A DNA stretch of 64,000 nt from an uncultured Thermoleophilia bacterium (GTDB lineage Bacteria; Actinomycetota; Thermoleophilia; UBA2241): positions 197,620 to 261,619 of the forward strand of contig CAVVGY010000005.1 of the NCBI GenBank assembly GCA_963747935.1, written 5' to 3'. Positions 28,489 through 53,373 of the stretch are shown here, piece by piece. The position numbers and the translations under genes were made by a program. Numbering within the stretch: position 1 is the stretch's first letter; each line of letters opens with the position of its first letter. The notes below the pieces were generated by a model. It searched no databases, was not told where the DNA came from, and was given only the letters and a program-made list of their open reading frames with translations.

Positions 28489-29892
28489 ATGGGGAGCGGA
28501 GGCACGGGTATCGACCAGCTCGCGGGCACCGTATTGCTGTACGTGCAGACGGCGGCCATCGCCGCGGACGGCGACGGCCGCGTCGGTGTGTTCAATCCTG
28601 CCGCCGCGCGCGTCCTGAGCGTGGAGGTGGACGAAGTCCTCGGCCGCGAACTCGAGGAGCTCACGCGCGGCGACGACGCCGTGGCCGCGCTGGCCGAGGT
28701 GCTGAGCGAGACGCGGCGGACCGGCCTGGCGGTCGCCCGCCGCCAGATGACCGTCAACGGCCGCGACGGCGAGCAGGTGCTCGGCTACAGCGCCTCGCTG
28801 ATCGGCGAGGGTGCGACGGCCGTGTTCTTCGCCGACCTCACGGACGCCCTGGCAGAAGAGCAGCGGGCTGCCGAGGCGCAGCGGTTCGCCGAGGTCGGCC
28901 GCATCGCCAGCGCCATGGCCCACGAGCTGAAGTCGCCGCTGGCCACCGTGGAGCTCTACGCCAACCTGCTCCGCCGGACGCTCCTTGAGGACACCGCCTC
29001 CCTCGAGCGGCTCGACGTGATCAAGGACCAGACGCGCCTCTGCCTCGACCGCATCGGCGCGATCATGCACTCCATCAACCCCGACATCGCCAAGGCCGGC
29101 GGCATGACGCTCACGCCGGTGGGTCCGCTGCTGCGCGACGTGGTCGGCGACCTGCGCCAGCGGCACGAGGACGCCGAGATCTCGCTGCGCGGCGCCGGCG
29201 GCGGCGCGCGCGTGGCTCTGGCGGAGAACGACCTGCGCTCGGTCGTGAGCAACCTCATCGTCAACGCTATCCAGGCGAGCGGCAGAGGGGCACGCGTGAC
29301 CGTGACCGTCAGCGGCGACGAGGACACGCTCACCATCACCATCGCCGACCGAGGTCCCGGGCTGCCCGAGGGCGACGTGTTCGAGGCGTTCTACACGACC
29401 AAGTCCAGCGGCACCGGGCTCGGTCTCTGGCTCGTGCGCCGCCTGGTGGAGGACGCCGGCGGCAGCATCAGCTCCGGCGCCCGCAAGGGAGGCGGCGCCG
29501 TGTTCACCGTGCGCCTGCCGCTCCCGCGCCGCGAGCGCGTGCGCGGCGCGCGGATCCTCGTCGTCGAGGACGAAGCGCCGCTGCGGGACTTCACGGCCGA
29601 GGTGCTGGAGGGTGGCGGCGCGCGCGTGACGGCGGCCGCTTCGGGGAATGACGTGCAACTGGCCTCGGAGCGTTGGGACTGCGCCGTGCTCGACTACCAC
29701 CTGCCGGGCATGACCGGGGTGGAGATCGCGACGCGTTTGGCACCCGGCACGCCCGTGCTCCTCGTGAGCAGCGATCCGGCCGCTGGAGCGGCTCTGGCCG
29801 AGGTGCGCGACAGGCGCGCGTGGTACCGGCCCAAACCTGTAGAGGCCGAGCTGTACCTCGACCTCGTCTCACTCCTGTTGGGGGCGACATGA
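28489..29892 (+). CDS. Cytoplasmic hybrid sensor histidine kinase (PAS-HisKA-HATPase-REC)
   Basis: H-box SAMAHELKSPL, N/G boxes NLIVNAIQAS, DRGPGL, GTGLGLW. C-terminal receiver ILVVEDE...LDYHLPGMTG. Confidence 0.85.
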   Translation: MGSGGTGIDQLAGTVLLYVQTAAIAADGDGRVGVFNPAAARVLSVEVDEVLGRELEELTRGDDAVAALAEVLSETRRTGLAVARRQMTVNGRDGEQVLGYSASLIGEGATAVFFADLTDALAEEQRAAEAQRFAEVGRIASAMAHELKSPLATVELYANLLRRTLLEDTASLERLDVIKDQTRLCLDRIGAIMHSINPDIAKAGGMTLTPVGPLLRDVVGDLRQRHEDAEISLRGAGGGARVALAENDLRSVVSNLIVNAIQASGRGARVTVTVSGDEDTLTITIADRGPGLPEGDVFEAFYTTKSSGTGLGLWLVRRLVEDAGGSISSGARKGGGAVFTVRLPLPRRERVRGARILVVEDEAPLRDFTAEVLEGGGARVTAAASGNDVQLASERWDCAVLDYHLPGMTGVEIATRLAPGTPVLLVSSDPAAGAALAEVRDRRAWYRPKPVEAELYLDLVSLLLGAT

Positions 29893-30551
29893 GAGATAAG
29901 GGAAGAGTGATCATCGCCGATGACCACGGACTGTTCCGCCAGGGGCTGCGGCAGCTCCTCGAGCATGAGGGCTACGTCGTGGAAGCGGAGGCGACCAGCG
30001 GCGACGAGGCACTGACGGCCGTCGCCGAGCACCAGGGCTGCGTGCTGCTGCTCGACATCGCCATGCCCGGCATGAACGGTCTCGAGGTGGCGCGGCGCCT
30101 CAACGAGCGCGGCGATGACGTCAAGGTGGTCATGCTCAGCGCGCGCGAGGACCGCGACGCGCTGTTCAGCGCCATCTCCGCCGGCGCGCGCGGCTACGTG
30201 GCCAAGGACGCCGAGCCCGACCAGCTCTTCGCCGCCATCGACCTCGTCGTGCGCGGAGGTACCGTGCTCAGCACCGGTGTGGCCCGGAACCTCGGCGAGG
30301 GCATCCGCCAGCTCGACTACGCCCCCGGCGCGTACGAGCAGCGCCGTCTCGCGCTCACCGACAGGGAGCTCGAGATCCTGCGCCTGCTCGCCACGCCCAA
30401 GACACCGGCGCAGATGGCCTCGCAGTTGTTCCTGAGCAAGAAGACGGTGCAGAACCACATCTCCGCGATCTATCGCAAGCTCGACGTGCGCAGCCGCTCG
30501 GAGGCCATCGTCAAGGGCATGGAGCTGCACCTCATCGACAACAAGGGCTAG
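29889..30551 (+). CDS. NarL/LuxR-family response regulator
   Basis: ATG overlaps the kinase stop (ATGA). VIIADDH...LLLDIAMPGMNG plus LTDRELEILRLLA...KTVQNHISAIYRKL. Stop is TAG. Confidence 0.9.
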   Translation: MRDKGRVIIADDHGLFRQGLRQLLEHEGYVVEAEATSGDEALTAVAEHQGCVLLLDIAMPGMNGLEVARRLNERGDDVKVVMLSAREDRDALFSAISAGARGYVAKDAEPDQLFAAIDLVVRGGTVLSTGVARNLGEGIRQLDYAPGAYEQRRLALTDRELEILRLLATPKTPAQMASQLFLSKKTVQNHISAIYRKLDVRSRSEAIVKGMELHLIDNKG

Positions 30552-30585: not shown

Positions 30586-31107
30586 CGCGCAGCCGCCTGC
30601 TCACACCTTCCGCCTGCTCCGCGCACGCATTCATGCACGGCCTCGTCGTGGTCGTGCTCATCGCATGGGCTTCGCATTGCTGCGCCGGCGCCGGGCCTGA
30701 GCTTGTTCGGCGCGGCGCCGCCGAAGGCGCCGCAGCTGCGGTCCCTCGCGATTCGGGAGCCAGTACCTATCGCGGTGGGGAAGACGTACGACGATGCTGT
30801 CAGGGAAGGAAGAGATCCCGCCGGATCGCGCGAAGATGCATCGGGGAGCGCGTAGAGCTCCCGACCAGGTCCGGCGAGATCTCCCCAATCTCCGACAGGG
30901 AGGCGCTTCCGGTCACGTCCCACACGCTCATTGCCTTGCCTGGCCTCCAAGGGGCGGGCGGAGAGTCTGCCAGGACCTCCGTCCGCCCCGGCCACGTACG
31001 GGGAGCGGAGCGTGTGGACACCGGGCGACGCTGCGGTGCGAGGACCCGGGGGCCTCTGGGGCGCAGTCACCGGACTGTCCGCCCGCTGAACGGGCACCAC
31101 CAGAACC

Positions 31108-31611
31108 ATGGACGAGGTGCAGATCGGTGAGGCGTTCATCGGCGACGGCGCCGACGCGGCGCACGTCAATACGGTGCTGGGACGGCGCGACGGACCCGTA
31201 GGGACGGCGTGGGCCACGGCGCTGGCGACGCCCCGCGCCGGCCACGTCCCGTTCGTGGCGGTGGTGCGGCCAGGGCTCGCCGTCCAGCCCATGACCCTGT
31301 TCGTCAACAAGGCGGCCATCGAGCCCGGCAGGCACGGGGACCTCACGTGGGGCGCGGCCCAGGCCGGCGTCGCCGCTGGAGTGGCGGATGCGGTGGCGGA
31401 GGGCGTCGTCCCGCAGGGTGAGGTCGCGGAGTTGGCGCTGATCGCCGCGGTGTGGGTGAACCCGGCGGCGCAGGACGAGGACGCCGTGTTCGCCAACAAC
31501 CGCGAGGCGGCTCTGACCGCCCTGCGCAACGGACGGGAGAGCGCGCCGCCCGTGGAGGACGTGCTGGCGGCGCGCGACGACCCGTGGAACCCCTTCTTCA
31601 GGGCGCGCTGA
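31108..31611 (+). CDS. fae: Formaldehyde-activating enzyme (Fae) homolog
   Basis: MDEVQIGEAFIGDGADAAHVNTVLG...FVNK...AQAGVAAGVADAVAEGVVP is collinear with Fae of methylotrophs ([20 protein letters not shown]..., recalled from memory). Confidence 0.8.
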   Translation: MDEVQIGEAFIGDGADAAHVNTVLGRRDGPVGTAWATALATPRAGHVPFVAVVRPGLAVQPMTLFVNKAAIEPGRHGDLTWGAAQAGVAAGVADAVAEGVVPQGEVAELALIAAVWVNPAAQDEDAVFANNREAALTALRNGRESAPPVEDVLAARDDPWNPFFRAR

Positions 31612-35612: not shown

Positions 35613-35774
35613 TACTCGTAGGCGCGCCGCGCTAGCGGCCGCCGTAGGGTGGTCATCGTCGGGTCTCACCACCAGGGTCGAGCCCCCTCTCCTGTTCCGT
35701 CGACCCTCCCGTCGTTACACGACCCCGCATGCGGGAACGTGCTGAGGTACTGCGGCAACACGACGGAGGATCCC

Positions 35775-37028
35775 GTGGAGCACATCGACGTGGCGATCGT
35801 GGGCGCCGGACAAGCCGGCCTCGCGGTCAGTCACGAGCTGACCGAGGCCGGCATCGACCACCTGGTGCTCGAGCACGGCCGGATCGGCGAGACGTGGCGC
35901 CGGCGCTGGGAGAGCTTCTGCCTCGTCACCCCCAACTGGAGCGTTCGGCTGCCCGGGTTCGCCTACGACGGTGACCAGCCGGACGGCTTCATGTCGCGCG
36001 ACGAGGTGGTCGGCTATCTCGAGCGCTACGCCGCCTCATTTGGCGCCCCCGTGCGCGCCGGAGTGCGCGTGGAGGCGGTGCGCGACAACGGCGCCGCCGG
36101 GTTCGTCCTGTTCACGAGCAGCGGGGCGCTCCACGCGGGCGCGCTGGTGCTCGCGAGCGGCGCGTACCAGCGCGAGCACCGTATCCCCGGCGCGCTCGGC
36201 CTGCCGCCCGACGTGCCCCGGTTCGGGCTCGCCGACTACCGCGACCCCGGCTCCCTGCCCGACGGTGAGGTCCTGGTCATCGGCAGCGGCCAGTCGGGTG
36301 CGCAGATCGCCGAGGAGCTCCGCAGGGCGGGGAGGGAGGTCACGCTGTCCTGCGGGCGCGCTCCCTGGGCGCCCCGCCGGTGGGCCGGCCACGACGTCGT
36401 CTGGTGGCTGGCCGAGTCGGGCTTCATGGACGCTCCGGCGAGCGCGCTGCCCACGCCGGCCGCCCGGCTGATCTCCAATCCGCTCGTCACCGGGCACGAC
36501 GGCGGGCGCGACCTCAACCTCCGCACGCTGCACGCTCAAGGCGTGCGGCTCACCGGGCGCTTTCTGGGCGCCGACGGGCGCGAGGCCCGCTTCGCTCCCG
36601 ACCTCGCGGAGAGTGTCGCGTGGGGTGACGCCCGCTACAAGGAACTGATGGACCTCTTCGGCAAGACTGCCGCCGCCCGCGGCGTCGCGGCGGACCCTCC
36701 GCCCGAGCCCGAGCCGCTCGCCCCGGACGCTCCCGAGCGCCTGGACCTCTCCCGGATCGGCTCCGTCCTCTTCACCGGCGGCTACCGTCCCGACTACCGC
36801 GCCTGGCTCCCCTGGCACATGGCGTTCGACGACCTCGGCTTCCCGCTGCACGACGAAGGGGAGAGCGTCGTGGTCCCCGGCCTGTTCTTCGTCGGCGTCC
36901 ACTTCCTGCGCAGGCGCAAGTCGGCGCTGCTGCTGGGGGTGGGAGAGGACGCGGCCGTGGTCGCGAGCCGCGTCGCCGCGCGCGCCGGCCGGCGGGATGT
37001 CCCGAAGGATGTGCCCCTGGCGAGCTGA
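35775..37028 (+). CDS. FAD/NAD(P)-binding flavin monooxygenase-like oxidoreductase
   Basis: GTG 35775 after GGAGGA. Two dinucleotide motifs, VAIVGAGQAG and VLVIGSGQSG. Confidence 0.75.
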   Translation: MEHIDVAIVGAGQAGLAVSHELTEAGIDHLVLEHGRIGETWRRRWESFCLVTPNWSVRLPGFAYDGDQPDGFMSRDEVVGYLERYAASFGAPVRAGVRVEAVRDNGAAGFVLFTSSGALHAGALVLASGAYQREHRIPGALGLPPDVPRFGLADYRDPGSLPDGEVLVIGSGQSGAQIAEELRRAGREVTLSCGRAPWAPRRWAGHDVVWWLAESGFMDAPASALPTPAARLISNPLVTGHDGGRDLNLRTLHAQGVRLTGRFLGADGREARFAPDLAESVAWGDARYKELMDLFGKTAAARGVAADPPPEPEPLAPDAPERLDLSRIGSVLFTGGYRPDYRAWLPWHMAFDDLGFPLHDEGESVVVPGLFFVGVHFLRRRKSALLLGVGEDAAVVASRVAARAGRRDVPKDVPLAS

Positions 37029-39020: not shown

Positions 39021-39034
39021 CCACCCGGGTGGAT
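39021..39034. promoter_or_regulatory. Operator palindrome CCACC-CG-GGTGGAT, site 1 (tetR promoter)
   Basis: Lies 14 nt downstream of a TTGGCG-N17-TAGTCT promoter (38979-39007) and 16 nt upstream of GTG 39050. Confidence 0.65.
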
Positions 39035-39049
39035 AGGAAGAGGGCGACC

Positions 39050-39736
39050 GTGACCACATCCAAGAAGAGTGCGCGGGGCAAGCTGCAGTTCCCGTTCGAG
39101 GATCCCGTCGAGACCCTGCCCGCTACGGCGCAGAAGATCCTCAAGGCCGCGACCACGCTGCTGGCGGAGAGGGGCTACGAGGCCGTCACGCTCGAGAACG
39201 TCGCCACCGAGGCGGGCGTGAACAAGGCCTCCATCCGCTACAACTTCGGCAACAAGGCGGGCCTCATCATGGCCGTCGCCGACGCGCTCATCCACAACGA
39301 GTGCCTGCGCCTGGCCGCCGACACGGAGAGCGTGCCGGAGGAGGAGCGGCTGCACGCGGCCATGGTCGGCATCCGCCGCATGATCGTGGACGCCGACTCG
39401 TTCCGCGGGTTCTTCGACATCCTGCCGCACGCGTTCCGCGACCCCGAGCTGCGCGAGCGCATGTTCGCGCTGTACGAGTGGTGGTACCACCAGAACCTCA
39501 CGTGGCTCGGCCTCGCCGGGCCGGGCGCGGAGAGCAACGAGATGCTCATGGGACTGGCCGAGCTCATCGCGGCCATCCCCGACGGCCTCTCGGTGCAGGC
39601 CGGCCTCAACCCGGACGGCTTCGAGCTCAGCCGGCCGCTCGCCACGCTCGAGTTCCTGCTGCGCAACTCGATGGTCCAGCTGCTGGAGATGGCCGCGAGC
39701 GCAGGCGATGCAGAGGCGGCCGCGGCGACGTCCTGA
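39050..39736 (+). CDS. TetR/AcrR family transcriptional regulator
   Basis: GTG 39050 after AGGAAGAGGG. HTH VTLENVATEAGVNKASIRYNFGNKAGL. The ORF-track start at 39029 lies inside the operator. Confidence 0.85.
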   Translation: MTTSKKSARGKLQFPFEDPVETLPATAQKILKAATTLLAERGYEAVTLENVATEAGVNKASIRYNFGNKAGLIMAVADALIHNECLRLAADTESVPEEERLHAAMVGIRRMIVDADSFRGFFDILPHAFRDPELRERMFALYEWWYHQNLTWLGLAGPGAESNEMLMGLAELIAAIPDGLSVQAGLNPDGFELSRPLATLEFLLRNSMVQLLEMAASAGDAEAAAATS

Positions 39737-39964: not shown

Positions 39965-41386
39965 GTGGCTTCGATCGTCACGCGCATGGGTGACGGCAGC
40001 ACCGTCCAGATGACCCGCGACGAGATCCGCAGGGAGATCGTCGAGGGGTCTGAGGCCGCGGCGGTGAAGGCCAAGGTCCCCGTACTCGAGGAGAACGAGG
40101 TCGACTACCTCGTCGACATGTTCTGTTGCCCCAGCCGCGTGTGGGGCGTGGAGCGCGGCCACGAGGCCGTCATGACCAAGGACGGCGGCACCAACACGCT
40201 CATCTCGTCGCGGCTCTCGAGCGGCATCGCCGCGCCGATCGGCCGCGAGACGGCCGTCAGGCTGTTCGAGCGGGCGTTCGCGTTCGACTCCATGGAAGTC
40301 GGCCACATCGACTACTCCGTGAAGCCGAGCAAGTTCATCGTCAGCGTGGAGCAGGAGCACATGGAACTGCTCCAGCACACCACCGTGTTTCCGCTCTTCT
40401 ACGGGTTCATGCCGAACCTGGGCCTCTACTACCGGCCCGACGGGCAGTTCGAGAACCCGTCCGACCTCTTGCCGCTGGGCAAGATCGCCGAGGCGCGGCG
40501 CACGCAGGAGGAGGCCCTGGAGGCCTGCCACGACGACGTCGTCTGGCAGAGCAAGATGTTCGCCGAGACCGGCGCCGACGGCATCAACTACGACACCGTG
40601 GCGTCCACCGGCGACGCCGAGTTCCTCGCCACTCTCCGCGCCACCGAGACCATCTCGTCCGAGACCCACATGCCGGTCGAGGTGAGCATGGCGGCCGAGA
40701 TGGTGCTGGGGTTCCACGGCGAGCTCGAGTACAAGGGCACCCGGCTCGCCGGGCTGTGGCCGCACCAGCAGATGAAGGTGGTCGAGCAGGCCGGCGCCGC
40801 GATCTTCGGCCCCGTGGTCAACAACAACAGCAAGAAGTCGTGCGCCTGGAACGTCGCCCGGGCGGTCACGTTCGTCAAGGCCTGCACCAAGGACGCGACC
40901 ATCCCCATCCACCCCAACGTGGGCAACGGTGTGGGCGGCGTGCCGATGTTCGAGGTCTCGCCGATGGACATGGTCAGCCGGGCGAGCGCCGCGATGATCG
41001 AGATCGGCAAGGCCGACGGGTTGTAGGTGGGTACCGGCGACCCGAACGGCATGGGTATGGCGCACGCGCTGGCCTCGTCGATGGGTGGCATCAAGACCGC
41101 GGGAGATCTCGTGGCCAGGATGCAGCTCAGCAGGAAGATGAGGCTTCCGGAGGCCAAGCAGTACGTGGCCGACAAGCTCGGCGTGAGCGTCTTCGACCTG
41201 TCCGACTCGACCGTGATGCGCACCGTGCGCGAGGAGTTCGACATCGGCGTCGTCACCGCCGTCCCCGGGCTCGCCAAGGGCCTCGAGGCCAAGTCGCGTA
41301 TCGCCGACCTGCTCGACATCCGCATCAACTCCGTCGAGCGCCTCAAGGCCAAGACGGGACTGGGCGCGCCGGCCGGAGCCGTCTGA
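39965..41386 (+). CDS. mtbB: Dimethylamine:corrinoid methyltransferase MtbB with in-frame UAG (putative pyrrolysine) at 41024-41026
   Basis: GTG 39965 after GGAGGGGG. VASIVTRMGDGSTVQMTRDEI...MEVGHIDYSVKP...FPLFYGFMPNLGLYYRPDGQFENP...LAGLWPHQQ...ARAVTFVK...IEIGKADGL-TAG-VGTGDPNGMGMAHALA...AGDLVARMQLSRKM. Collinear over its full length with Methanosarcina MtbB as I remember it (..VAGVDGI-Pyl-IGVGDPLGM..). The ORF track splits it into 39836-41026 and 41027-41386 in the same frame. Confidence 0.9.
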
Positions 41387-41396: not shown

Positions 41397-42023
41397 ATGA
41401 AAGACCAGCTCAAGCAAGCCATCATCGACGGCAACGAGGGCGTCGCCCTGGCGATGACCCAGGCGCTGCTCGCCACCGGGGCCTCGGCCCGTGAGATCTT
41501 AGACGAGGGCCTGCTCCCGGGCATGGAGGTCGTGGGCACGCGCATGCGCGAGGGCGAGTGCTTCATCCCCGAGGTGCTGCTCTCCGCCCGGGTCATGCAG
41601 GCCTGCCTCGACCTGCTGCGCCCGCACATGGCGGCCGGCGAGGAGGCCGGCATGGGCACGGTCGTGATCGGCACCGTCGAGGGCGACCTGCACGACATCG
41701 GCAAGAACCTCGTCGGCATGCTCCTCCAGGGCGCCGGCTTCACGGTCGTGAACCTCGGCACCGGGGTGACGGCCGCCGACTTCGTCGCCGCGGTCAGGGA
41801 GCACTCACCCGCCATCATCGGCATGAGCGCCCTGCTCACGACCACGCTGCCGCACATGAGCGAGACGATCGCGCAGCTCAAGGCCGAGGGCCTCCGGGAC
41901 GCGGTCAAGGTGATGGTCGGCGGCGCCCCCGTGACGGCCGCCTACGCCGAGGAGATCGGCGCCGACGGCTACGGCGCCAACGCCGGCATGGCCGTGGAGC
42001 GGGCGAAGGAGCTGGTGGGGTAG
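41397..42023 (+). CDS. Methylamine-type corrinoid (B12-binding) protein, MtbC/MttC-like
   Basis: N-terminal helical cap plus Rossmann B12 domain with the DxHxxG motif (GDLHDIGKN) and GMSALLTTT. Stop is TAG 42021-42023. Confidence 0.85.
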   Translation: MKDQLKQAIIDGNEGVALAMTQALLATGASAREILDEGLLPGMEVVGTRMREGECFIPEVLLSARVMQACLDLLRPHMAAGEEAGMGTVVIGTVEGDLHDIGKNLVGMLLQGAGFTVVNLGTGVTAADFVAAVREHSPAIIGMSALLTTTLPHMSETIAQLKAEGLRDAVKVMVGGAPVTAAYAEEIGADGYGANAGMAVERAKELVG

Positions 42024-42122
42024 GCTGGAGGCCGTGGAGGCCGCCCGCGCCGCGTGCGGACGGCGAGAGACCAGAGCCTCCGCCAGGGGGCGGCGGATCC
42101 TGATGGGGAACGGGGTGGACTG

Positions 42123-43553
42123 ATGACCGTGCGGGTCGAGTGGCTCACGGCAGACGAGCGCGAGGCGATCTACACCCAGGCGCTCGACATCCTCGAGCGC
42201 GTCGGCATGCGCATGAAGGGCGCCGCGGTGCTCGACCTGCTGCGCGAGGCCGGCGCGGAGGTGGACGACTCCGGGACGGCGCGCCTGCCGGCAGGGCTCG
42301 TCGAGCGCGCCGTCGCCGCGTGCCCGCGCGACCTGCTCATGGCCGGCGAGACGCCGGACGACGACGTGCTGCTCGACGGCTCCCGGACGTTCTTCAACGT
42401 CAGCGGCTGCGCGGCCAAGACCCTGGACCAGCAGACCGGCGCCGTCCGGCCCTCCACGCTGGACGACCTGCGCGACGGCACCATCGTGCTGGACGCCACG
42501 CCCGAGCTCGACGTCGTCTGGACGTTCCTCACCGCCACCGACGTGCCGCTCGAGCGGCGGGAGCTCGTCGAGTACTACACGTACCTCACGGAGACCACCA
42601 AGCCGCTGGTGTTCGTCGACTGCCCCGAGAAGACCGACCACGTGCGCCACATCATCGAGATCGTGTCCGGGGACCTCGAGAAGTTCCGGCAGCGGCCGCG
42701 CATGTCGCTGCTGTGCGCGGCCCGCTCGCCGCTCGAGGTCAACGGCCAGCTGCTCGACGTGGCCTGCGAGTTCGCGTCGCTCGGCGCTCCCATCTGGGTC
42801 TACTCCATGCCCATCTCCGGGGCCACGGCTCCCGTCACCCCGGCCGGTACCCTGGCGCTGCTCTGGGCCGAAGTACTGGGCACCCTGACCGCCATCCAGA
42901 CGGCGGCGCCCGGGGCCCCCATCCTCGCCTGTTGCGGGCCCGGGATCCTCGACATGCGCGCCACCACCATGTCGCTCGGCAACCTCGAGAGCACGCTCAT
43001 GGGCGCGGCGGCGGTCGAGATCGGCCACCACCTCGGGATCCCGGTGCACAACTCCGGCCTCTCCACCGACGCCAAGCACCTCGGCGTGCAGGCCGGCTAC
43101 GAGAAGGGCCTCAAGGTGATGGCGGCGGTCGCCACCGGCGCCGACATCTGCAGCGGCGGCTTCGGGTTCCTCGACTCCTCGAGCACGTTCAGCCTGCGCA
43201 TGATCCCCGTGGACGCCGAGATCGCCGCCATGGCGACGCGCATGGCGCGGGGCATCGAGGTGACGCCCGACACCCTTCTTGCGGACTCCATCGGGCGTGT
43301 GGGTATCGGCGGGGACTTCCTGCGCGAGAAGGAGACACGCCGCCGCATCCGCGCCGGCGAGCACTTCGTACCGCGCATCGGCTCGCGGCTGCCGTTCGAA
43401 CAGTGGCTCGCCGAGGGCCGCACCGAGACGGACGCCGCCGACGACGCGGTGCGAGCCGCGCTGGCCGCGCGCGAAGAGCGCGGCCCGCGGCTGTCGGAGG
43501 ACCAGCGGCGCGCGCTCGCCGCGGTCTGCGACGTGACCACGACCACTACGTGA
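42123..43553 (+). CDS. MttB-superfamily methyltransferase without pyrrolysine (quaternary-amine type)
   Basis: ATG 42123 (MTVRVEWLTADEREAIY..). At the Pyl-equivalent column it reads SG-L-STDAKHLGVQAGYEKGL, with Leu in place of Pyl. Confidence 0.85.
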   Translation: MTVRVEWLTADEREAIYTQALDILERVGMRMKGAAVLDLLREAGAEVDDSGTARLPAGLVERAVAACPRDLLMAGETPDDDVLLDGSRTFFNVSGCAAKTLDQQTGAVRPSTLDDLRDGTIVLDATPELDVVWTFLTATDVPLERRELVEYYTYLTETTKPLVFVDCPEKTDHVRHIIEIVSGDLEKFRQRPRMSLLCAARSPLEVNGQLLDVACEFASLGAPIWVYSMPISGATAPVTPAGTLALLWAEVLGTLTAIQTAAPGAPILACCGPGILDMRATTMSLGNLESTLMGAAAVEIGHHLGIPVHNSGLSTDAKHLGVQAGYEKGLKVMAAVATGADICSGGFGFLDSSSTFSLRMIPVDAEIAAMATRMARGIEVTPDTLLADSIGRVGIGGDFLREKETRRRIRAGEHFVPRIGSRLPFEQWLAEGRTETDAADDAVRAALAAREERGPRLSEDQRRALAAVCDVTTTTT

Positions 43554-43597: not shown

Positions 43598-45064
43598 ATG
43601 AAGCGGAACCACCAGGCCGGCCGCACGCGCCGGGAGGGCTGCGAGTTCCGGGTCCTGACCGACGACGACCTCGCCGACATCCACCTCGGGACCCTGGAGG
43701 TCCTGGAGCGGACGGGCGTGTACGTCGAGGACGAGGAGGCCCGCGAGGTCTTCGCCGGGGCCGGCGCCACGGTCGACGCCAAAGGCGTCGTCCGCATCCC
43801 CGGCCACGTCGTCGAGCAGGCCGTGCGCACGGCGCCCAGCAAGCTCCGGCTCGCCGGCCGCAACCCCAGGAACGACATCGTGCTCGAGGCCGGGCGCGTC
43901 GGCTTCACCAACTTCGGTGAGGGCGTCGCGATCATCGACCCGTACACCGGCGAGCTCAAGGTACCGACCAAGCAGGACGTCGCCGACACCGCCAAGGTCG
44001 TCGACGCGCTGCCCAACGTGGACGTCTACGAGCGCGCCGTGGTGGCCGAGGACGTCGACCAGCGCGTCGTCCACCTGCACCAGTACGAGGCCTGGGCGAC
44101 CAACACGTCCAAGCACGGATTCATGGGCTCCGGCAACGGCTGGCTCTCCCGCAAGCTGGTCGAGATGGCGTCCGTCATCGCCGGCGGGCGCGAGAAGCTC
44201 AAGGAGCGCCCGATCATCAGCTTCATCACCTGCCCCGTGAGCCCGCTCAAGCTGGTGCAGGACACGTGCGAGATCATCATGACCGGCGCCCGCGAGCACA
44301 TCGCCGTGAACATCCTCTCGATGGCGATGGCCGGCGGCTCGTCGCCGGTGACGCTGGCGGGCACGCTGGTCACGCACAACGCCGAGGTGCTCGCCGGCAT
44401 CACGCTGAGCCAGCTCACCCAGCCGGGCGCCAAGGTCGTGTACGGCAGCTCCACGACGGCCATGGACCTGCGGCTCGCCTCCGCGAGCGTCGGCTCGCCC
44501 GAGTGCGGCCTCATCAACGCCGCCGTCGCCCAGATCGCCCGCTTCTACCTGCTGCCCAGCTGGGTAGCGGGTGCGTAGGGCGACGCCAAGACGGTCGATG
44601 CCCAAAGCGGCCACGAGAAGACCCTGACCGGCCTGATGCCGGCGTTGGCAGGCGCCAACCTGATCTACGGTCTGGGGATGATCGAGTCGGGCATGACCTT
44701 CGACTTCGGCCAGCTCGTCATGGACGACGAGTTCGCCGGCATGATCAAGCAGTGCGTCCGCGGCATCCGCGTGGACGACGAGGCGCTCGCCATCGACGTG
44801 ATCGACGACATCGGTCCGTTCGGCGACTTCCTCAGCCACGACCACACCATGGCGCACATGCGCGAGCAGTCGCAGCCTGCGGTGATCGACCGTCGCGTCC
44901 GGGAGGACTGGACGACCAACGGCTCGCTCACCATCCAGGACCGCGCCCTCGCCAAGGCGCGCAAGATCCTCGAGACCCACCAGCCGGACCCGCTGCCGGA
45001 CGGCGTGGCCGACGAGCTCAAGGAGATCATCCGCGCGGCCGAGCGCGAGCTCGGCGTCGGGTGA
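43598..45064 (+). CDS. mttB: Trimethylamine:corrinoid methyltransferase MttB with in-frame UAG (putative pyrrolysine) at 44576-44578
   Basis: ..NILSMAMAGGSSPVTLAGTLVTHNAEVLAGITLSQLTQPGAKVVYGSSTT...[45 protein letters not shown]. Methanosarcina MttB (from memory) reads ..YVAGS-Pyl-SDAKVPDDQAGHEKT. The ORF track splits it into 43598-44578 and 44636-45064 in the same frame. Confidence 0.9.
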
Positions 45065-45335: not shown

Positions 45336-45606
45336 GGGAACAGAGCGCCCCGCCACTGTCTCCCGCCACTGCCCCACGCCGCGGAGCCGGCCGCAGGCTG
45401 CGAGGTTCCAGTGCAGTCTCGCTTTTTGGATTCCTTACCGATTCTCACTTCATCAGGCACTAAGTGCTCCAGTTGGCGGTAATCTCGTCACGAACCGACG
45501 AAAAGTGCCACTATCGGTTCAGAATCCATCGCTGAGCGGTTGTCAGCCGTCAGTCTCGGTGCTACTCTCGGAACGACCAAATCACGAGCAATCGAGGAGC
45601 CGCTCC

Positions 45607-46341
45607 ATGAACAACAAGATCGTCCCGCTCTGGTCCGTACCGCGGTCTATCTCCACCGGCTTCGAGCGCATGATGTTCGAGCGCGGCGACTTCAAGGTCA
45701 TCCACGAGCCCTACGGCTACTTCTTCTACCTCGAGGCCGCGCACAAGGAGCCCGTGGGCATGCAGCCGCAGGAGGGTCATCCGCAGACCTTCGAGGGCAC
45801 GACCGAGATGATCGAGGCCGCCGCGACCGCCGACAAGCCGGTCTTCTTCAAAGACATGGCGTACTACGTCAGCGACGTGGCGGACGAGGACTTCATGAAG
45901 AAGTTCACCAACACGTTCATCATCCGCGACCCCGCCCTCACGCTCGTCTCGTACCACAAGCTCGACCCCACGGTGACCCTGCGCGAGATCGGCTTCGAGT
46001 CGCAGTTCAAGCTGTTCGAGCTCGCCAAGAAGATCACCGGCGAGGTGCCGGCGGTCGTCGACGCCGAGGACCTGCTCATCGACGCCGGGTCGGTGGTCAA
46101 GCAGTACTGCGAGAAGGTCGGCATCCCGTTCCTGCCCGAGTCCCTCACCTGGAAGCCCGAGTTCAAGCAGGAGTGGAAGGACTGGGAGATGTGGCACCTG
46201 GACGCCGGCGACAGCACCGGCTTCCAGAAGGACATGGAGGACTTCGGCTACACGGTCGACGACGTGCCCGAGCTCAGGGAGATGTACGACAAGTGCCAGC
46301 CTCTGTACGAGAAGATGTACGCGGAGCGGCTCAAGCCGTAA
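45607..46341 (+). CDS. Sulfotransferase-family protein
   Basis: ATG 45607 after GAGGAG. N-terminal WSVPRSISTGF resembles the PAPS 5'-phosphosulfate-binding loop. Sits directly upstream of sat and a SulP permease. Family assignment is tentative. Confidence 0.6.
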   Translation: MNNKIVPLWSVPRSISTGFERMMFERGDFKVIHEPYGYFFYLEAAHKEPVGMQPQEGHPQTFEGTTEMIEAAATADKPVFFKDMAYYVSDVADEDFMKKFTNTFIIRDPALTLVSYHKLDPTVTLREIGFESQFKLFELAKKITGEVPAVVDAEDLLIDAGSVVKQYCEKVGIPFLPESLTWKPEFKQEWKDWEMWHLDAGDSTGFQKDMEDFGYTVDDVPELREMYDKCQPLYEKMYAERLKP

Positions 46342-46444: not shown

Positions 46445-47662
46445 GTGAACCAGCGTCCCGAGAACTGCGAGCTCATCTCGCCCTTCGGCGGCGGGCCTCT
46501 GGTCGACCTGGTGGTCCACGACCCCGACGAGCGCGCCGCGCTGCTCGAGCGGGCCCAGAACCTGCCTGTGGTGCCGCTCTCGTTGCGCGCCCAGTACGAC
46601 CTCGAGATGCTCGCGGTGGGCGCGTTCTCGCCGCTGGACAGGTTCATGCCGCACGACGAGTACGAGTCGGTCCTCTACGAGATGCGCCTCGAGGGCGGCG
46701 AGCTGTTCCCCATCCCGCTCGCCGTGCCCTGCCGCGAGGAGGTCCTCCGCGGGCACCCGCGCGAGATCGCGCTGTCGGACGAGGAGGGCGTCATCCTGGC
46801 CCTGCTCGAGGTGGACGAGGTCTACCCGGCCGACATCCTGCGCGAGATGCGCGCGGTGCTGGGCGGCCGGGACAGCGCGCACCCGCTCGTCATCGAGGCC
46901 AAGGGCTGGCCGAGTCACTATCTCGCCGGACGCCCGCGCGTGCTCGACCTGCCGCGCCACCGGCTGCACGGACCCATGTGCCTCACGCCGGCGGAGTTGC
47001 GCGCGCGCCTCGCCACCATGGGCAACTCGACCGTGGTGGCGTTCCAGACGCGCAACCCCATGCACCGCATCCATGAGGAGCTCACCAAGCGCGCGCTCAG
47101 GACGGTCGGCGGCACGCTCCTCATCCATCCGGCCGTGGGCGTCACGCGGCCCCAGGACGTCGGCGCGGCGCTCCGTGTGGAGGCCTACGAGGTCCTCGTG
47201 CACAACTACTACGACTCGTCGAACACGCTGCTCTCCCTCATGCCTCTGGCCATGCGCTTCGCCGGGCCGCGGGAGGCCGTGTGGCACGCGATCATCCGGC
47301 GCAACTACGGCGCCACCCACATCATCGTGGGGCGGGACCACGCCGGGCCTGGTCCCGACTCGCACGGGGTGCCGTTCTACGGGCCCTACGACGCGCAGGC
47401 CATGGCCGAGCACTACTCGCACGAGATCGGGGTGAAGACCATTTTGGCGCGGGAGCTCGCCTACCTCACCGACGAAGACCGCTACGTGGAGCTCAACGAG
47501 GTCCCGTACGGCGCGCGCGTCTCTTCCATCTCGGGCACGCAGGTGCGCGAGGAGTACCTGGCCAAGGGCAAGAAGCTGCCCGAGTGGTTCACCCGTCCCG
47601 AAGTCGCGGAGGTCCTGCAGCGGGCGTACGCGCAGGCCGGCGATGCGGCGCCCGGCGCCTGA
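46445..47662 (+). CDS. sat: Sulfate adenylyltransferase (ATP sulfurylase, Sat type), no APS-kinase domain
   Basis: FQTRNPMHRIHEELTKRA...GRDHAGPG... Confidence 0.9.
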   Translation: MNQRPENCELISPFGGGPLVDLVVHDPDERAALLERAQNLPVVPLSLRAQYDLEMLAVGAFSPLDRFMPHDEYESVLYEMRLEGGELFPIPLAVPCREEVLRGHPREIALSDEEGVILALLEVDEVYPADILREMRAVLGGRDSAHPLVIEAKGWPSHYLAGRPRVLDLPRHRLHGPMCLTPAELRARLATMGNSTVVAFQTRNPMHRIHEELTKRALRTVGGTLLIHPAVGVTRPQDVGAALRVEAYEVLVHNYYDSSNTLLSLMPLAMRFAGPREAVWHAIIRRNYGATHIIVGRDHAGPGPDSHGVPFYGPYDAQAMAEHYSHEIGVKTILARELAYLTDEDRYVELNEVPYGARVSSISGTQVREEYLAKGKKLPEWFTRPEVAEVLQRAYAQAGDAAPGA

Positions 47663-49354
47663 CGGCCGCACCCGGCTGAGCCTCCCCACGCGCCGCGACC
47701 TGCTGCACGACCTGGTCGCGGGGCTCACCGTCGGGGCCTCGCAGGTCGGCAATGCGATGGCCTACACCATGCTCGCCGGGGTGCCGCCGGTCCACGGCCT
47801 CTACGCCGTCGCGGCGGGTACGCCGGCGGGGGCGCTCACCGGCGGGTCGCAGCGCATGCCGATGGTGCCTACGGCGGCGCTCTGCCTGGCGGCCGGCGGC
47901 GCGCTCGCCACGCTCCCGGCGGACAAGCGCGTCGTCGGCCTCTTCACGCTGGCCGCGCTCACCGGCGCCCTCATGCTCGTCCTCGGCCTCCTGCGCGCCG
48001 GCGGCCTTGTGCGCTTCGTCTCCAACGCGGTGATGATCGGCCTCATGGGCGGGATCGGCGTCACGATCCTGCTGTCGCAACTCGGTGCGCTCACCGGCTT
48101 CTCCAGCCGCTACGACAACAAGGTGCTCAAGGCCGCCGATCTGTTCATGCACCCGGGCGCGTCGGACGTGGAGACCACCGTCATCGGACTCGTCACGGTC
48201 GCGCTGGTCGTGGCGCTCAGGCATACGCGGCTCAAGCTCTTCGCCATGGCGCTGCCGCTGCTGGTCATGACGGTGGTCGTGGCGCTGCTCCAGGTGGACT
48301 CGATCGCGGTCGTGGGTGACATCGCACCCATCCCGCGCTCGTTGCCCCTGCCCCGGCTTCCCGATCTGGCGCTGGTGCCGGTCGCTGGTGGTGCCGGCGC
48401 TGTCCCTCGTGATCATCGGCCTCGTCCAGGGGGCGGGCATCAGCCGCACCGTCGCCAACGCGGACGGCTCGTTCGGCGACACCAGCCGGGACTTCGTGGG
48501 GCAGGGGGTGGCCAACGTGTTCTCGGGGATGTTCAGCGGCGGCGTGGTGGGCGGCTCCGTGCAGGCGACGGCGCTCAACGTGGGCGCGGGCGCGCGCACG
48601 CGGTGGTCATCGGTCATCACCGCGGCCTTCGTCGTGGTGGTGCTGCTCGCGGCCGCCCCGCTCGTGCAGCAGGTGCCGCTCGCCGTCACCGCCGGCATCC
48701 TCATCGTGGCCGCGACCAGCGCGCTGCAGCCGCGCGCCGCGCTGGACGTGTGGAGGGCCGACAGGGTGTCCGCCCTCATCATGCTCGTCACGTTCGCCCT
48801 GGTCCTGATCGTGCCTCTGCAGTACGCCGTGCTCGCCGGGGCGGGGATCTCGGTGCTCAAGTACCTCTACCTCTCGTCGGTCGACGTGCACGTCAAACAG
48901 GTCGTGCTGGACGGCGACGGGCTGCCGAGGGAGCTGGACGCTCCTGCGGAGCTCTCCGGCGACGACGTCACCGTGCTGGACATCTACGGCAGCCTGTTCT
49001 TCGCGGCCGCCCCCAAGATCCGCTCGTCCCTGCCGGCGGTGGGCGAGCGCGCACTGCCCCGTGGTGGTGCTGCGCCTCCGCGGCCGCGGCACGCTGCACA
49101 GCGCGACCATCGTGGTGCTGCGCGAGTACGCGGCCGAGTGCGCGGCCGGGGGCGGCCGGCTGTACCTCGCCGGCGTCGGCAGCGAGATGGAGGAGCAGCT
49201 CAGGCGCACGGGAGTGCTGGACCTGCTGGGCCCCGACGCCGTGGTCACGGCCACGGACGAGTTGTACGGCGCCTGCGCCCTGGCGCAGGCGCGGGGACGC
49301 GACTGGCTTGCGGCCCGCACCGACGGTCTGCCGGGAGGCCCTCGCACCGTCTGA
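47643..49354 (+). pseudogene. SulP-family anion transporter with STAS domain, two frameshifts (about 48381 and 49054)
   Basis: Three consecutive frames. ..AGLTVGASQVGNAMAYTMLAGVPPVHGLY..PDLALVP | SLVVPALSLVIIGLVQGAGISR..DIYGSLFFAAAPKI..GERA | CPVVVLRLRGRGTLHSATIVVL.. Confidence 0.85.
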
Positions 49355-49424
49355 CCGGCGCGGCCGCCGGGACCGGCACTCGGGTCGGCGCCTGCGTGAT
49401 CGGCCGACCCGCGCTACCGACGTG

Positions 49425-49649
49425 TCAGTCGCCGCCCTGGAGCCCGCGTTCCGGGTGCTCGCCGCACCAGTCGTCCGGCTCGGTGAGCGGGAAATCGCGC
49501 GGGGGGCTCGGCGGGTACCGGCGGCACTCACCCTTGTCGTTGGCGGTGCGGATCTCCACCTGCTCGGACGCTGCCTCCGACCAGCGGTACTCGATCCGGT
49601 CGGGCAGCCGCGACCACATGGGGCAGGTCGCACACCTGGGTTCGTCCAT
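49425..49649 (-). CDS. Hypothetical small Cys-containing protein (74 aa)
   Basis: ATG 49649 after AGGGG (MDEPRCATCPMWSRLPDRIEYRW..). Weak evidence. Confidence 0.35.
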   Translation of the reverse strand: MDEPRCATCPMWSRLPDRIEYRWSEAASEQVEIRTANDKGECRRYPPSPPRDFPLTEPDDWCGEHPERGLQGGD

Positions 49650-49729
49650 GGAGCACCCCTTCTCGCTGAGCGGTTCGGCAGGAGCGTACCCTCCGCGCCC
49701 CCCAGAGCGCCATCCGGATCCCGGAGCGC

Positions 49730-50575
49730 TCAACCCACCGTGATGCACACGATGCCGGCGAACACGAGGCCGGCGGCGACCCACTGCAGGGGCCTGAGCC
49801 GTTCGTGCAGTACGGCGGCCGCCCACGCCATCGTGACCGCCGGGTTGAGCCAGCCGAGGACTCCCACCACGCTCAGGTAGCCGTGGGCGGTCGCGGAGGT
49901 GAACAGGATGTTGGCGGCCGCGATCAGCACGCCGACGACCACGAGCGTGGGGAGCGCTCGCCTGCGCAGCCGGATCGTCGGGCGGGTGGCGGCGGCGGCG
50001 ACGAGCAGGGTCAGCGCCGCCGTGGTGCGCGCCACCGTCACCGTGTACAGGGGCGCGGCCTTGTCGCCGTAGCTCAGGGCGACGAGGAAGAGGCCCATGG
50101 CGACTGCGCAGAGGATCGCCATGAGGATGCCGGTCCGGGCGCGCGAGCGCGCCTCGCCGGCATCCCTCCGTCCCGTGCTCGAGATCAGGATCATCCCGAG
50201 CAGCGCACAGGCGATGCCGAGGACCTGGACGGCGCCGGGCCGCTCACCGGTCGCGACGCCCCACAGTACCGGCACGAGAGCGGCGCCGGCGATGATCGGC
50301 GACACGAGGCTCAGGTCGGCGAGGGCGAACGCCCGGTAGCCGAGGACGACCCCGACGCCGCCGACCAGGCCGCCCACCGCCGGCGCGACCAGGGCGCCCG
50401 GCGTGGGACGGTCGGGCGTGAGCGCCACGAGCAGGACGACCAGCGAGAGGGCGGCGACGACCTGCCCGCCCAGCGCGACGGTCCAGGCGGTCGAGCGTCG
50501 CGATTCGAGGCCGGCGAGGAAGTCCGACGTGCCCCACGAGAAGCTCGCCAGCAGGGCGAGGAGGGCGGCCGTCAC
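49730..50575 (-). CDS. EamA/DMT family transporter
   Basis: 281 aa, 10 TM helices (SFSWGTSDFLAG..). Lies 14 nt downstream of the Lrp-like gene. Confidence 0.8.
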   Translation of the reverse strand: MTAALLALLASFSWGTSDFLAGLESRRSTAWTVALGGQVVAALSLVVLLVALTPDRPTPGALVAPAVGGLVGGVGVVLGYRAFALADLSLVSPIIAGAALVPVLWGVATGERPGAVQVLGIACALLGMILISSTGRRDAGEARSRARTGILMAILCAVAMGLFLVALSYGDKAAPLYTVTVARTTAALTLLVAAAATRPTIRLRRRALPTLVVVGVLIAAANILFTSATAHGYLSVVGVLGWLNPAVTMAWAAAVLHERLRPLQWVAAGLVFAGIVCITVG

Positions 50576-50588
50576 GGACCGGGCGGGG

Positions 50589-51177
50589 TCAGGAGGAGAG
50601 TTCGTCTCCGTCGAGGGTCACTCCGTCCCCGCTCGGAGCCGGCCCGAGGCCGACGTCCTCGCCCTCCCAGTTGTAGAAGAACTTCTCGGTGCGCAGCACG
50701 TTCCACGTCTGGGTGCCGGCGATGCCGTCGATCTTCTCGAGGTCCTCGTTGAGGAACTTGAACAGGCCCTCCATGTGCGGCAGGTAGGCCTGGATGATGA
50801 TGTCGAAGTTGCCGGCCACGTAGGCGACGTAGGCCACGTTCTCCATCTCCGCGAGCCTGCGCCCGACCTCGCGGACCTTGCCGCGCTGCACGTTGATGCC
50901 GACCATGGCGTCGATGGGGAAGCCGATGGGCGCCGGGTTGATGCGCGCCGCGTTGATGATGGCCCCGGCGTGCACCAGCCGGTCGATGCGCTTGCGCACG
51001 GTGGGCTCGGAGAGTCCGACCGGTGCGGGCGATGTGGGCGTAGCTCAGGCGCGCGTCGTGGCGCAGCAGCTTCATGATCTGACGGTCCACGTCGTCAAGC
51101 TCTATGGTACCGTGGGGCAGGGAGCCCTGACGGACGATTGGTTGGCTTTCGCTTTGGCTATCGCTTTCGCCGTTCAT
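50589..51177 (-). pseudogene. Lrp/AsnC family transcriptional regulator, frameshifted at about 51021
   Basis: HTH half (LDDVDRQIMKLLRHDARLSYAHIART) and the continuation (VGLSEPTVRKRIDRLVHAGAI.. plus RAM/AsnC_trans_reg domain) are in adjacent frames. Start is ATG 51177 or GTG 51237. Confidence 0.8.
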
Positions 51178-51310
51178 AAGAGCGAAGTATAGCGATTCGC
51201 CACGAATCTGTTCAAGGAACTGTTCGGAATCCGTCACTTCACCTATGAATCCGCAGGTTCCGTCTTGTCAGCCCTGCGCTCGCGGTGGTAACCTCTCCTC
51301 TCAAGGACGC

Positions 51311-51536: not shown

Positions 51537-53181
51537 GTGACTGACAAGGATCAGCGCAGTCCATCAGGGTTCGAGGAGATCGGCGAGCTCGTCAACGGCA
51601 AGCGCATCTCGCGCCGCAGCCTGATCAAGGGCGCCGCCGCGATGGGCGCGGTCGCGGCTCTGGGACCGATCGCCGCGGCGTGCGGCAGCAGCAGCAGCGA
51701 CACCGGCTCGTCGGCCAGCCCGGCGGCGGGCGCCAGCGCCACCAAGGGCGGCGACCTCATGGTCGGCATCGTCGGCGGCTCGGCCAAGGACACGGCCGAC
51801 CCGCACACCGGCTCGTACGAGCCCGACATCGCCATCCAGTACATCATGTACGAGGGCCTCACCGCGTGGGACTTCGACATGAACCTCACCAACCTCCTGG
51901 CCGAGACCATCGAGCCCAACGCCGAGGGTACCGTCTGGCAGGTCAAGCTGCGCGACGGCGTGACGTGGCACGACGGCAAGCCCCTCACCGCCGACGACGT
52001 GGTGTACTCGCTGGACCGCATCGTCGACCCGAAGGACCCGAAGGTCGGCGCCGCCGCTCTCACCGGCGTCACCAAGGGCGGCAACAAGAAGGTCGACGAC
52101 GAAGACCGTGGAGATCACGCTCTCGACGGCCAACGTGCTGCTGGACGAGAACCTGGCGGAACGCAGCTGCAAGATCGTGCCCGTGGGCTTCGACCCGAAG
52201 GCCCCGATCGGCAGCGGCCCGTTCAAGATGCTCGAGATGAAGCCCGGTGAGTCGTTCAAGTGGGCCAACTTCACCGAGTACTGGAACACGCCCGCGTATG
52301 TCGACACGCTCACCATGATCGAGTACGCCGACGACACGGCGCGCATCAACGCTCTGCAGAGCGGCCAGATCCAGGCCATGTCGCAGCTTCCGAAGAGCCA
52401 GGCCAAGGTCATCGAGGCCACGGACGGCCTGGCGCTCCTCAACGCCGAGACCGGTGCGTGGCGTCCGTTCACCATGCGCATCGACGCCAAGCCGTACAGC
52501 GACGTGCGCGTGCGGCAGGCGTTCCGGCTCATCGTCGACCGCCAGCAGATGATCGACCAGGCGTACAGCGGCCTGGGCGCCGTGGCCAACGACATGTACG
52601 CCCGGTACGACGCCGGTACGCCGCAGCTCGAACAGCGCGTGCAGGACATCGAGCAGGCCAAGTCCCTGCTCAAGCAGGCCGGCTACGACAACAACCTCAC
52701 CGTCGAGCTCGTCACCTCCGAGGGCGCGCTGGGCGGCGACGAGGTCGCAGCGGCGCAGGTGTTCGCCGAGCAGGCCAAGGCCGCCGGCGTCACGGTGAAG
52801 ATCAAGAAGACCGACGCCAGCGTCTTCTACGGCGACGACTACCTCTCCTGGCCGTTCGCGCAGGACTTCTGGGCCACGCGTGGCTTCCTCGCGCAGGCCA
52901 GCCAGGGCACCATGCCGGACGCGCCGTACAACGAGACGCATTGGCAGAACCCCGAGTGGCTGTCCCTGGTGCAGAAGGCGTTCAAGACCGTCGACGACGG
53001 CCAGCGCAACGACCTGATCAGCCAGGCCCAGCAGATCGAGCAGGAGACCGGCGGCTACATCGTGTGGGCGTGGCGTAACCAGGTCGACGCCTATTCCAAG
53101 ACGACCACCGGCTACAAGCTGGACAAGCTCGGCGGTCCCATCGGCCGCATGTACTTCAAGGACGTGTACTTCACGGCCTGA
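51537..53181 (+). pseudogene. ABC transporter substrate-binding lipoprotein, family 5 (Opp/Dpp/Nik type), frameshifted at 52101
   Basis: Tat-like RRSLIKGAAAMGAVAAL plus lipobox AAAC. ..GNKKVDD | KTVEITLSTANVLLDEN.. continues in the next frame. Confidence 0.85.
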
Positions 53182-53196
53182 TCGCGAGTAGACATC

Positions 53197-53235
53197 GACC
53201 GCGGGCGCGGGGTGATCCTCCCCGCGCCCGCGGTC
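53197..53235 (+). terminator. 16-bp perfect intra-operon hairpin after the binding-protein gene
   Basis: GACCGCGGGCGCGGGG-TGATCCT-CCCCGCGCCCGCGGTC. Typical of an mRNA stabiliser or partial terminator between an SBP gene and its permease genes. Confidence 0.5.
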
Positions 53236-53373
53236 CACTCCGGTGACGAGCACTGCCGCGGTGCTCGCTCGATCGTGACGTCATCCGCGGCGGCCTGTGA
53301 CCCCGCTTCCCTGTAGTTCCCCCCGAGAGGCAGTCATCATGATCAGTAGAACCGAAAGAGGGAGAGGCCGTTC

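Follow-up and report, generated by a model that had tools for sequence, protein, structure and literature searches.

Is the single TAG codon that interrupts a methylamine methyltransferase gene of an uncultured Thermoleophilia bacterium a stop codon, or is it translated as pyrrolysine (Pyl)? The question is raised by a stretch of 64,000 nucleotides from contig CAVVGY010000005.1, referred to below as the window, which has a G+C content of about 70% and carries mtbB, the gene for dimethylamine:corrinoid protein Co-methyltransferase, with one TAG inside its reading frame. We consider that this mtbB most probably (with a probability of about 0.9) encodes a functional Pyl-dependent dimethylamine:corrinoid methyltransferase of a soil bacterium of the class Thermoleophilia (Actinomycetota). 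The coordinates of all features of the window are collected in Table 1.

A full-length mtbB gene with one internal TAG

The mtbB frame contains 473 sense codons and a single internal stop, the TAG at codon 354, before it terminates at a TGA codon (41384-41386). A Shine-Dalgarno-like run, GGAGGGGG, is found 9 nt upstream of the GTG start. Profile searches were run with the TAG written as X. Pfam Dimeth_Pyl (PF09505) matches mtbB with 627.3 bits over profile positions 4-462 of 463, and the NCBIfam equivalog TIGR02368 matches it with 517.8 bits over positions 6-465 of 466, above the curated cut-off of 369.1. Judged by these profiles, the family match is far beyond chance level. A preliminary description made from the letters of the window had proposed a full-length MtbB homolog of 473 codons interrupted solely by this TAG. 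Both points hold, and the translation is identical to the flanks it quoted, IEIGKADGL before the TAG and VGTGDPNGMGM after it. A search of the PDB with MtbB returned no solved homologue for comparison.

The TAG occupies the pyrrolysine column

The Pyl column of mtbB was defined by an Rfam model, by the lengths of homologous proteins and by alignments of related loci. The Rfam model PYLIS_2, an mtbB model that begins at the UAG, aligns its position 1 with nucleotide 41024 (match 41024-41123, 54.9 bits, gathering score 36), and its translated consensus reads O-IGVGDPMGM against O-VGTGDPNGM in the window, with O standing for Pyl. A search of 5.8 billion proteins returned as the best 120 MtbB homologues (59-96% identity) sequences that are all 301-356 amino acids long, most of them 346-356, indicating that gene callers end all 120 at the same TAG. 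Furthermore, the TAG is kept at the Pyl column in 36 of the 37 mtbB alignments obtained from 28 related loci of GTDB species representatives, including that of a 62%-identical paralogue; the single exception (locus L028) looks like a frame-shifted stretch of alignment. The same TAG was present in the independently assembled genomes that were checked, short-read and long-read alike.

To assess coding constraint on both sides of the TAG, we calculated the ratio of nonsynonymous to synonymous substitution rates (dN/dS, Nei-Gojobori) against 12 Thermoleophilia-type orthologues. The ratio is 0.10-0.24 for the 119 codons that follow the TAG (codons 355-473) and 0.06-0.30 for the part of mtbB that precedes it. 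Similarly low values on either side indicate that the tail is translated in this frame and that selection maintains it. The segment after the TAG also has the codon-position pattern of this genome's coding sequence, with a G+C fraction of 0.92 at third positions and 0.47 at second positions. These results bear out three further claims of the preliminary description, namely that the TAG falls in the Pyl column, that homology runs on to the natural C-terminus and that gene callers would split the gene, the calls in relatives being a piece of 353 amino acids and another of roughly 111-118.

A second pyrrolysine gene in the same cluster

The window contains a second gene of this kind, which the preliminary description did not mention. 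The mttB gene, 2 kb downstream of mtbB, encodes a trimethylamine:corrinoid protein Co-methyltransferase that matches its equivalog model well above the cut-off and aligns over its full length with Methanosarcina barkeri MttB (PDB 7XCL/7XCM, 395 bits). Its in-frame TAG falls on the residue given as X in chain 7XCL_A and as K in chain 7XCM_A, within the segment YVAGSXSDAK; we take this X to be Pyl334 of the M. barkeri enzyme. Position 1 of the Rfam model PYLIS_3 likewise aligns at the TAG (44576), which is kept in all mttB orthologues found.

A complete pyrrolysine system in the related lineage

We searched for the catalytic part of the pyrrolysyl-tRNA synthetase, PylSc, with the Methanosarcina mazei sequence (verified against PDB 2Q7E) as the query against cluster representatives. 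Representatives of high-G+C amino-acid composition were then picked and aligned, and the alignment was used for a second search. In a word-indexed protein database, the Methanosarcina query had given 400 clusters at E <= 1e-5, with sequences of Methanosarcina type only. The Thermoleophilia-type profile gave, at E <= 1e-10, 4,829 different clusters (90% identity), among them MFA4966234.1, which NCBI names 'pyrrolysine--tRNA(Pyl) ligase large subunit [Thermoleophilia bacterium]'.

One contig places the methyltransferase genes and the Pyl machinery on the same molecule. Contig ena:ERZ25039513:contig_13825 (364,837 bp) carries mtbB and mttB, both with TAG, at 131-152 kb, in a stretch about 80% identical to the window at the nucleotide level that shares the ATP-binding cassette (ABC), SulP and AsnC genes. 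The pylSc and pylSn genes lie at 346-365 kb of the same contig, about 200 kb away from the mtbB/mttB cluster. Locus L033, 96% identical to this pylS region, adds a tRNA-Pyl with the anticodon CUA (17466-17538), pylD, pylC and a frame-shifted pylB; its pylSc, pylSn, pylD and pylC products score above the NCBIfam cut-offs and pylB below. In locus L038 all five protein genes are intact and accompanied by a tRNA-Pyl (CUA) at 14204-14276, with every protein above its cut-off (given in brackets): PylSc 327 bits (178), PylSn 127 (51), PylD 206 (150), PylC 331 (248) and PylB 448 (348). The corresponding values in L033 are 305 bits for PylSc (TIGR02367) and 121 bits for PylSn (TIGR03912). L038 comes from ENA accession ERZ25039462, which it shares with L032, a contig carrying an mtbB with TAG.

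Hallmarks of tRNA-Pyl are a D loop of 5 nt and a spacing of one base from the acceptor stem to the D stem. The tRNAs of both loci fold into a cloverleaf with these two features, and two of their stem pairs show compensatory substitutions from one locus to the other. The PylSc of this lineage is closest to that of Desulfitobacterium hafniense (PDB 3DSQ/2ZNI, 295 bits). The genes are arranged as pylSc, a corrinoid gene, a radical-SAM gene other than pylB and pylSn, followed on the opposite strand by tRNA-Pyl, pylD, pylC and pylB. Ahead of pylSc, the setting of gltX, OKR_DC, TldD/PmbA, OsmC, BacA and Amidase_3 genes is kept (L033 10001-20800, L038 10001-17437, L036 and L037). Taken together, these findings make it clear that the related lineage possesses a full Pyl system of the bacterial type. 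By extension from these relatives, the window's own genome presumably encodes one as well.

Alternative explanations for the TAG

Several observations weigh against Pyl insertion at codon 354. Neither pylT nor pylS was detected in the 64-kb window by ARAGORN, Rfam or tblastn, the best tblastn match to M. mazei PylSc having an E value of 3, and none of the 28 related loci has a pyl gene within 10 kb of mtbB. The pyl genes are thus not linked to the mtbB cluster. PylB-, PylC- and PylD-type domains were absent from the window open reading frames (ORFs) scanned with Pfam, no search aimed at these genes having been made. Among the relatives in which a single contig holds both mtbB and pylS, the nearest has an MtbB identity of only 75%. 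TAG is, moreover, the ordinary stop of at least nine Pfam-supported genes of the window, including the corrinoid gene adjacent to mtbB. Over 58 ORFs of coding-like composition, some of them probably opposite-strand shadows, we counted 40 TGA, 15 TAG and 3 TAA stops. Finally, we found no stable mRNA structure 3' of the TAG, the folding energies being close to those of shuffled sequence (z = -0.14 and -0.32).

The last point concerns the PYLIS element. Both Rfam models (RF02509 and RF02510) score above their gathering scores in the window, with many model pairs flagged as non-canonical by cmscan and the first hairpin of PYLIS_2 mostly unpaired at the mtbB TAG. The non-canonical pairs and the shuffled-level folding energy indicate that these matches reflect coding-sequence homology and not structure. 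A PYLIS stem-loop directly 3' of the window TAGs was therefore rejected for want of a thermodynamic signal and because the model pairs are broken. To our knowledge, no mRNA structure after the UAG is required in bacteria.

Were the TAG a true stop, mtbB would be a pseudogene or would encode a truncated protein of 353 residues, and the 119 codons of the tail would either remain untranslated or give a separate product, initiated at the GTG codon that directly follows the TAG and is a possible start. The two pieces given by gene callers, the many other window genes that end in TAG and the lack of pyl genes in the window all fit such a stop. We nevertheless consider it most unlikely, because the TAG is fixed at one column in a set of orthologues and a paralogue spanning 60-98% identity, because the tail remains in frame under constraint like that of the N-terminal part, because the neighbouring mttB repeats the pattern at the Pyl column of a solved structure, and because relatives encode the full Pyl machinery. 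An error of assembly or sequencing in this long-read metagenome-assembled genome (MAG) deserves practically no weight. Several window genes are indeed frame-shifted in the way typical of long-read consensus errors, but these errors are indels and not substitutions, and the TAG recurs in independent short-read and long-read assemblies and is implied by the lengths of the 120 best homologues. Its conservation across genomes excludes a sequencing error.

The UAG could also be read through without Pyl, the pyl genes having been lost and a near-cognate or other suppressor tRNA inserting a standard amino acid. Sister families do have members without Pyl, with Ser, Gly or Thr at the column in MttB paralogues and Asn in the MtmB homologue of L032, and the search of this genome for pyl genes covered the window. 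However, lineages that dispense with Pyl swap the TAG for a sense codon, related lineages that keep the TAG have complete pyl gene sets, and the low dN/dS in comparisons with close relatives points to a function that has not changed. We regard this explanation as very unlikely.

Pyrrolysine insertion thus remains our preferred reading of codon 354. With TAG serving as an ordinary stop elsewhere in the window, Pyl decoding must be partial, tolerated, induced or regulated. Carbon-source-dependent induction of Pyl decoding is described for Acetohalobium. Ambiguous amber decoding has been reported in methanogens (PMC12626013).

Proposed pathway

The following steps rest on the established biochemistry of Pyl and of methylamine methyltransferases and are extended to this organism. 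The UAG at codon 354 would be read by an amber-suppressor tRNA-Pyl (anticodon CUA) to give an enzyme of 473 residues. PylB, PylC and PylD would synthesise the pyrrolysine, and a split synthetase of the bacterial type, PylSn/PylSc, would load it onto the tRNA; the genes for all of these would lie elsewhere in the genome. With dimethylamine as the methyl donor, MtbB would then methylate the Co(I) state of the corrinoid protein whose gene directly follows mtbB, and the Pyl-containing MttB would perform the same transfer with trimethylamine. From the corrinoid protein, the methyl group would presumably pass to a pterin carrier such as tetrahydrofolate through a methylcorrinoid:pterin methyltransferase, and a reductive activase would also be needed. 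Neither of these two enzymes was found among the window genes scanned.

The methylamine gene cluster and its surroundings

Table 1. Features of the window, with positions counted from its first nucleotide.
Feature	Positions	Strand	Evidence or remark
MTHFR-like protein	5132-5974
Polyketide cyclase	7728-8210		ends in TAG
Pterin dehydratase	15486-15809		ends in TAG
EamA	17900-18916		ends in TAG (18914-18916)
CDF-type cation efflux transporter	22130-23215		ends in TAG
Nramp	23212-24483	-	ends in TAG
Nramp, tandem gene	24503-25774	-
MgtE-N/CBS protein	25788-27071	-
M-box magnesium riboswitch	27124-27293	-	144.5 bits
LuxR regulator	29673-30551		ends in TAG
Formaldehyde-activating enzyme (Fae)	31090-31608		174 bits
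Flavin monooxygenase-like oxidoreductase	35649-37028
TetR/BetI-type transcriptional regulator	39029-39736	+	Pfam TetR_N 53 bits, TetR_C_6 (BetI-type) 33 bits
mtbB, dimethylamine:corrinoid protein Co-methyltransferase	39965-41386	+	Pfam PF09505, NCBIfam TIGR02368
In-frame TAG, predicted Pyl codon 354 of mtbB	41024-41026	+	Rfam PYLIS_2, conserved TAG, homologue lengths
Corrinoid (B12-binding) protein, MtbC/MttC-like	41397-42023	+	Pfam B12-binding_2 and B12-binding; ends in TAG
MttB-superfamily methyltransferase without Pyl	42123-43553	+	Pfam MTTB 248 bits
mttB, trimethylamine:corrinoid protein Co-methyltransferase, 488 codons	43598-45064	+	TIGR02369 737 bits, cut-off 525
In-frame TAG, predicted Pyl codon 327 of mttB	44576-44578	+	alignment to 7XCL_A; Rfam PYLIS_3 position 1
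Sulfotransferase-domain gene	45505-46341
SulP	47643-49743		two frame breaks, near 48.33-48.38 kb and 49.0 kb
AsnC/Lrp	50572-51237	-	frame break near 51.02 kb
SBP_bac_5 binding protein	51537-53181	+	frame break near 52084-52100
Opp/Dpp-type ABC importer: SBP_bac_5 (frame-shifted), two permeases, fused double ATPase	51537-57082	+	Pfam
ABC ATPase	ending at 57082		ends in TAG
Third MttB-superfamily gene, single ORF of 483 amino acids without in-frame TAG	57183-58634	+	Pfam MTTB 251 bits

A corrinoid protein that could serve as the partner of MtbB is encoded directly after mtbB. Its translation shows the DxHxxG motif (as DLHDIG), and it matches the NCBIfam pyl_corrinoid model with 192.5 bits as well as MtbC and MtgC models. 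All of these scores are below the curated cut-offs, so that the call is made at the family level and the subtype may be MtbC, MttC or MtgC. The TAG that ends the corrinoid gene is a recurrent stop, found in about 10 of roughly 16 orthologues. It stands in frame with the following MttB-family ORF (42024-43553) for 509 sense codons, and read-through would fuse the two. This in-frame arrangement is also seen in L001 and L002 and is broken by stops or by another frame in L005, L014 and others, and a programmed corrinoid-MttB fusion was set aside as probably incidental. We likewise set aside EamA and the racemase gene in frame with it as a further Pyl candidate, Pfam identifying two unrelated genes.

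The gene that follows the corrinoid gene belongs to the MttB superfamily and has Ser at the Pyl column, with TCC or TCG there in its orthologues. It matches TIGR02369 with 327 bits, below the cut-off of 525, and may start at an alternative GTG (42054). The substrate of the enzyme is probably a quaternary amine or another methylated amine. A third superfamily gene comes after the Opp/Dpp-type ABC importer, and both paralogues without Pyl probably serve methylated amines other than trimethylamine. The importer possibly takes up a substrate of the cluster; in the related locus L035 it lies directly upstream of the methyltransferase genes. Immediately 5' of mtbB, in a synteny kept in related loci, the TetR/BetI-type regulator is a possible substrate-responsive repressor of the cluster.

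Frame-shifting indels are a common consensus error of long-read assemblies. Comparison with the intact orthologues of L035 located the frame changes of SulP (two), AsnC and SBP_bac_5, those of SulP and SBP_bac_5 being +1. They look like long-read indel errors rather than decay, in keeping with the earlier claim that the other disruptions of the window are single-base indels. Similar breaks occur in related long-read contigs, for example in the pylB of L033.

Further from the cluster, the formaldehyde-activating enzyme, the MTHFR-like protein and the flavin monooxygenase-like oxidoreductase may belong to one-carbon or methylamine metabolism. Elsewhere, the M-box riboswitch precedes the MgtE-N/CBS protein and the tandem Nramp genes.

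Related loci in Thermoleophilia

The 28 related loci were found in the GTDB genome collection. The label is Thermoleophilia for 22 of them and Actinomycetes or Actinomycetota for another 4, and many belong to a single series of long-read MAGs whose isolates have 'MFD' names. Across Thermoleophilia MAGs, mtbB orthologues are 60-98% identical. The best match reaches 98% identity in protein and about 92% in DNA, and its genes are ordered as in the window, beginning at guaB and guaA and continuing through the cluster. The nearest genomes are thus Thermoleophilia MAGs, in agreement with the actinobacterial context noted earlier.

Some loci depart from the window in gene content. Right after mttB, where the window has the sulfotransferase-domain gene, L001 (15245-16636), L005, L007, L017, L021, L024 and L026 have a second mtbB paralogue, about 62% identical and with TAG at the same column, which is absent from the window. 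L032 carries an MtmB homologue without TAG (4549-5931), in which Asn aligns to the Pyl (X) of M. barkeri MtmB (PDB 1L2Q); it adjoins an MttB-family gene, a corrinoid protein gene and choline-kinase/APH-like genes. L016 has tandem mtbB copies (10001-11401 and 11464-12540, the second from residue 112), both with TAG, reflecting either a duplication or an assembly artefact. In addition, a 4.3-kb contig labelled 'Deltaproteobacteria bacterium' (L004, JBLMXT010000196.1) encodes an MtbB 93-95% identical to those of Thermoleophilia and is probably mis-binned.

Comparison with known pyrrolysine systems

The window mtbB resembles the Pyl-containing MtbB1-3 of M. barkeri (PF09505/TIGR02368) in its end-to-end family match, in the column of its UAG and in the adjacent corrinoid gene. 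Unlike the M. barkeri genes, it belongs to a bacterial host of high G+C (about 70%) and has no PYLIS-like structure. The methyl group would not go to coenzyme M as in methanogens, presumably going to a pterin carrier instead. The window mttB shares with M. barkeri MttB (PDB 7XCL) a TAG at the position of X; its host is bacterial, and the same cluster contains an MttB paralogue without Pyl.

Bacterial Pyl systems occur in Firmicutes and Deltaproteobacteria, for example in Desulfitobacterium hafniense, Acetohalobium arabaticum and Bilophila wadsworthia. The related lineage has in common with them a split PylSn and PylSc and clustered pylB, pylC, pylD and pylT, and the window has in common with them that TAG stays an ordinary stop elsewhere. 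The lineage differs from them in its phylum and class (Actinomycetota, Thermoleophilia), in the order of its pyl genes and in the distance of about 200 kb between the pyl cluster and mtbB/mttB.

The preliminary description had held that bacterial Pyl users are mainly Firmicutes and Deltaproteobacteria. The phylum does differ from theirs; the taxonomic novelty is smaller than this implied, Actinobacteria having already been published (PMC10805028, PMC9630628) and a Thermoleophilia PylS being named at NCBI (MFA4966234.1). Ellenbogen et al. (2023) showed that Actinobacteriota MAGs from Stordalen Mire express Pyl-encoding mttB and mtbB, the genes being identified through their premature end at the amber codon and their transcripts detected (PMC10805028). 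Guo et al. (2022) count two Actinobacteria among 81 bacterial PylRS genomes (PMC9630628). Both studies concern the same phenomenon in the same phylum, without a locus-level description. In the literature library that we searched, no paper ties pyrrolysine, mtbB or mttB to Thermoleophilia by name. Pyl use in Actinobacteria is therefore rare in the literature and not unreported; the window mtbB adds a further example to an established type of gene and does not show a new mechanism.

Implications for Thermoleophilia

Both Pyl genes are split by gene callers, here and in relatives, so that the methylamine-using capacity of Thermoleophilia MAGs is likely under-annotated. The MtbB homologues that rank as the best 120, together with the 28 representatives of GTDB species, appear to belong to the clade that the PylSc profile recovered, the 4,829 clusters giving its apparent size. 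We tentatively raise the possibility, though we lean somewhat against it, that the Thermoleophilia of soils and wetlands form a reservoir of Pyl-decoding bacteria that is very large and has hardly been described. In that case, soils could have a significant methylamine sink outside the methanogens, in which Actinomycetota would demethylate di- and trimethylamine with Pyl-dependent enzymes, TAG remaining a frequent stop in the genomes concerned.

Recognition of these genes assigns the demethylation of dimethylamine and trimethylamine to a class of actinobacteria that is common in soil, which is relevant to the competition for methylamines with methylotrophic methanogens. The genes also widen the range of bacteria in which natural expansion of the genetic code is documented, and the split PylSn/PylSc and tRNA-Pyl, coming from a lineage of high G+C, could be of interest for practical work as orthogonal pairs.

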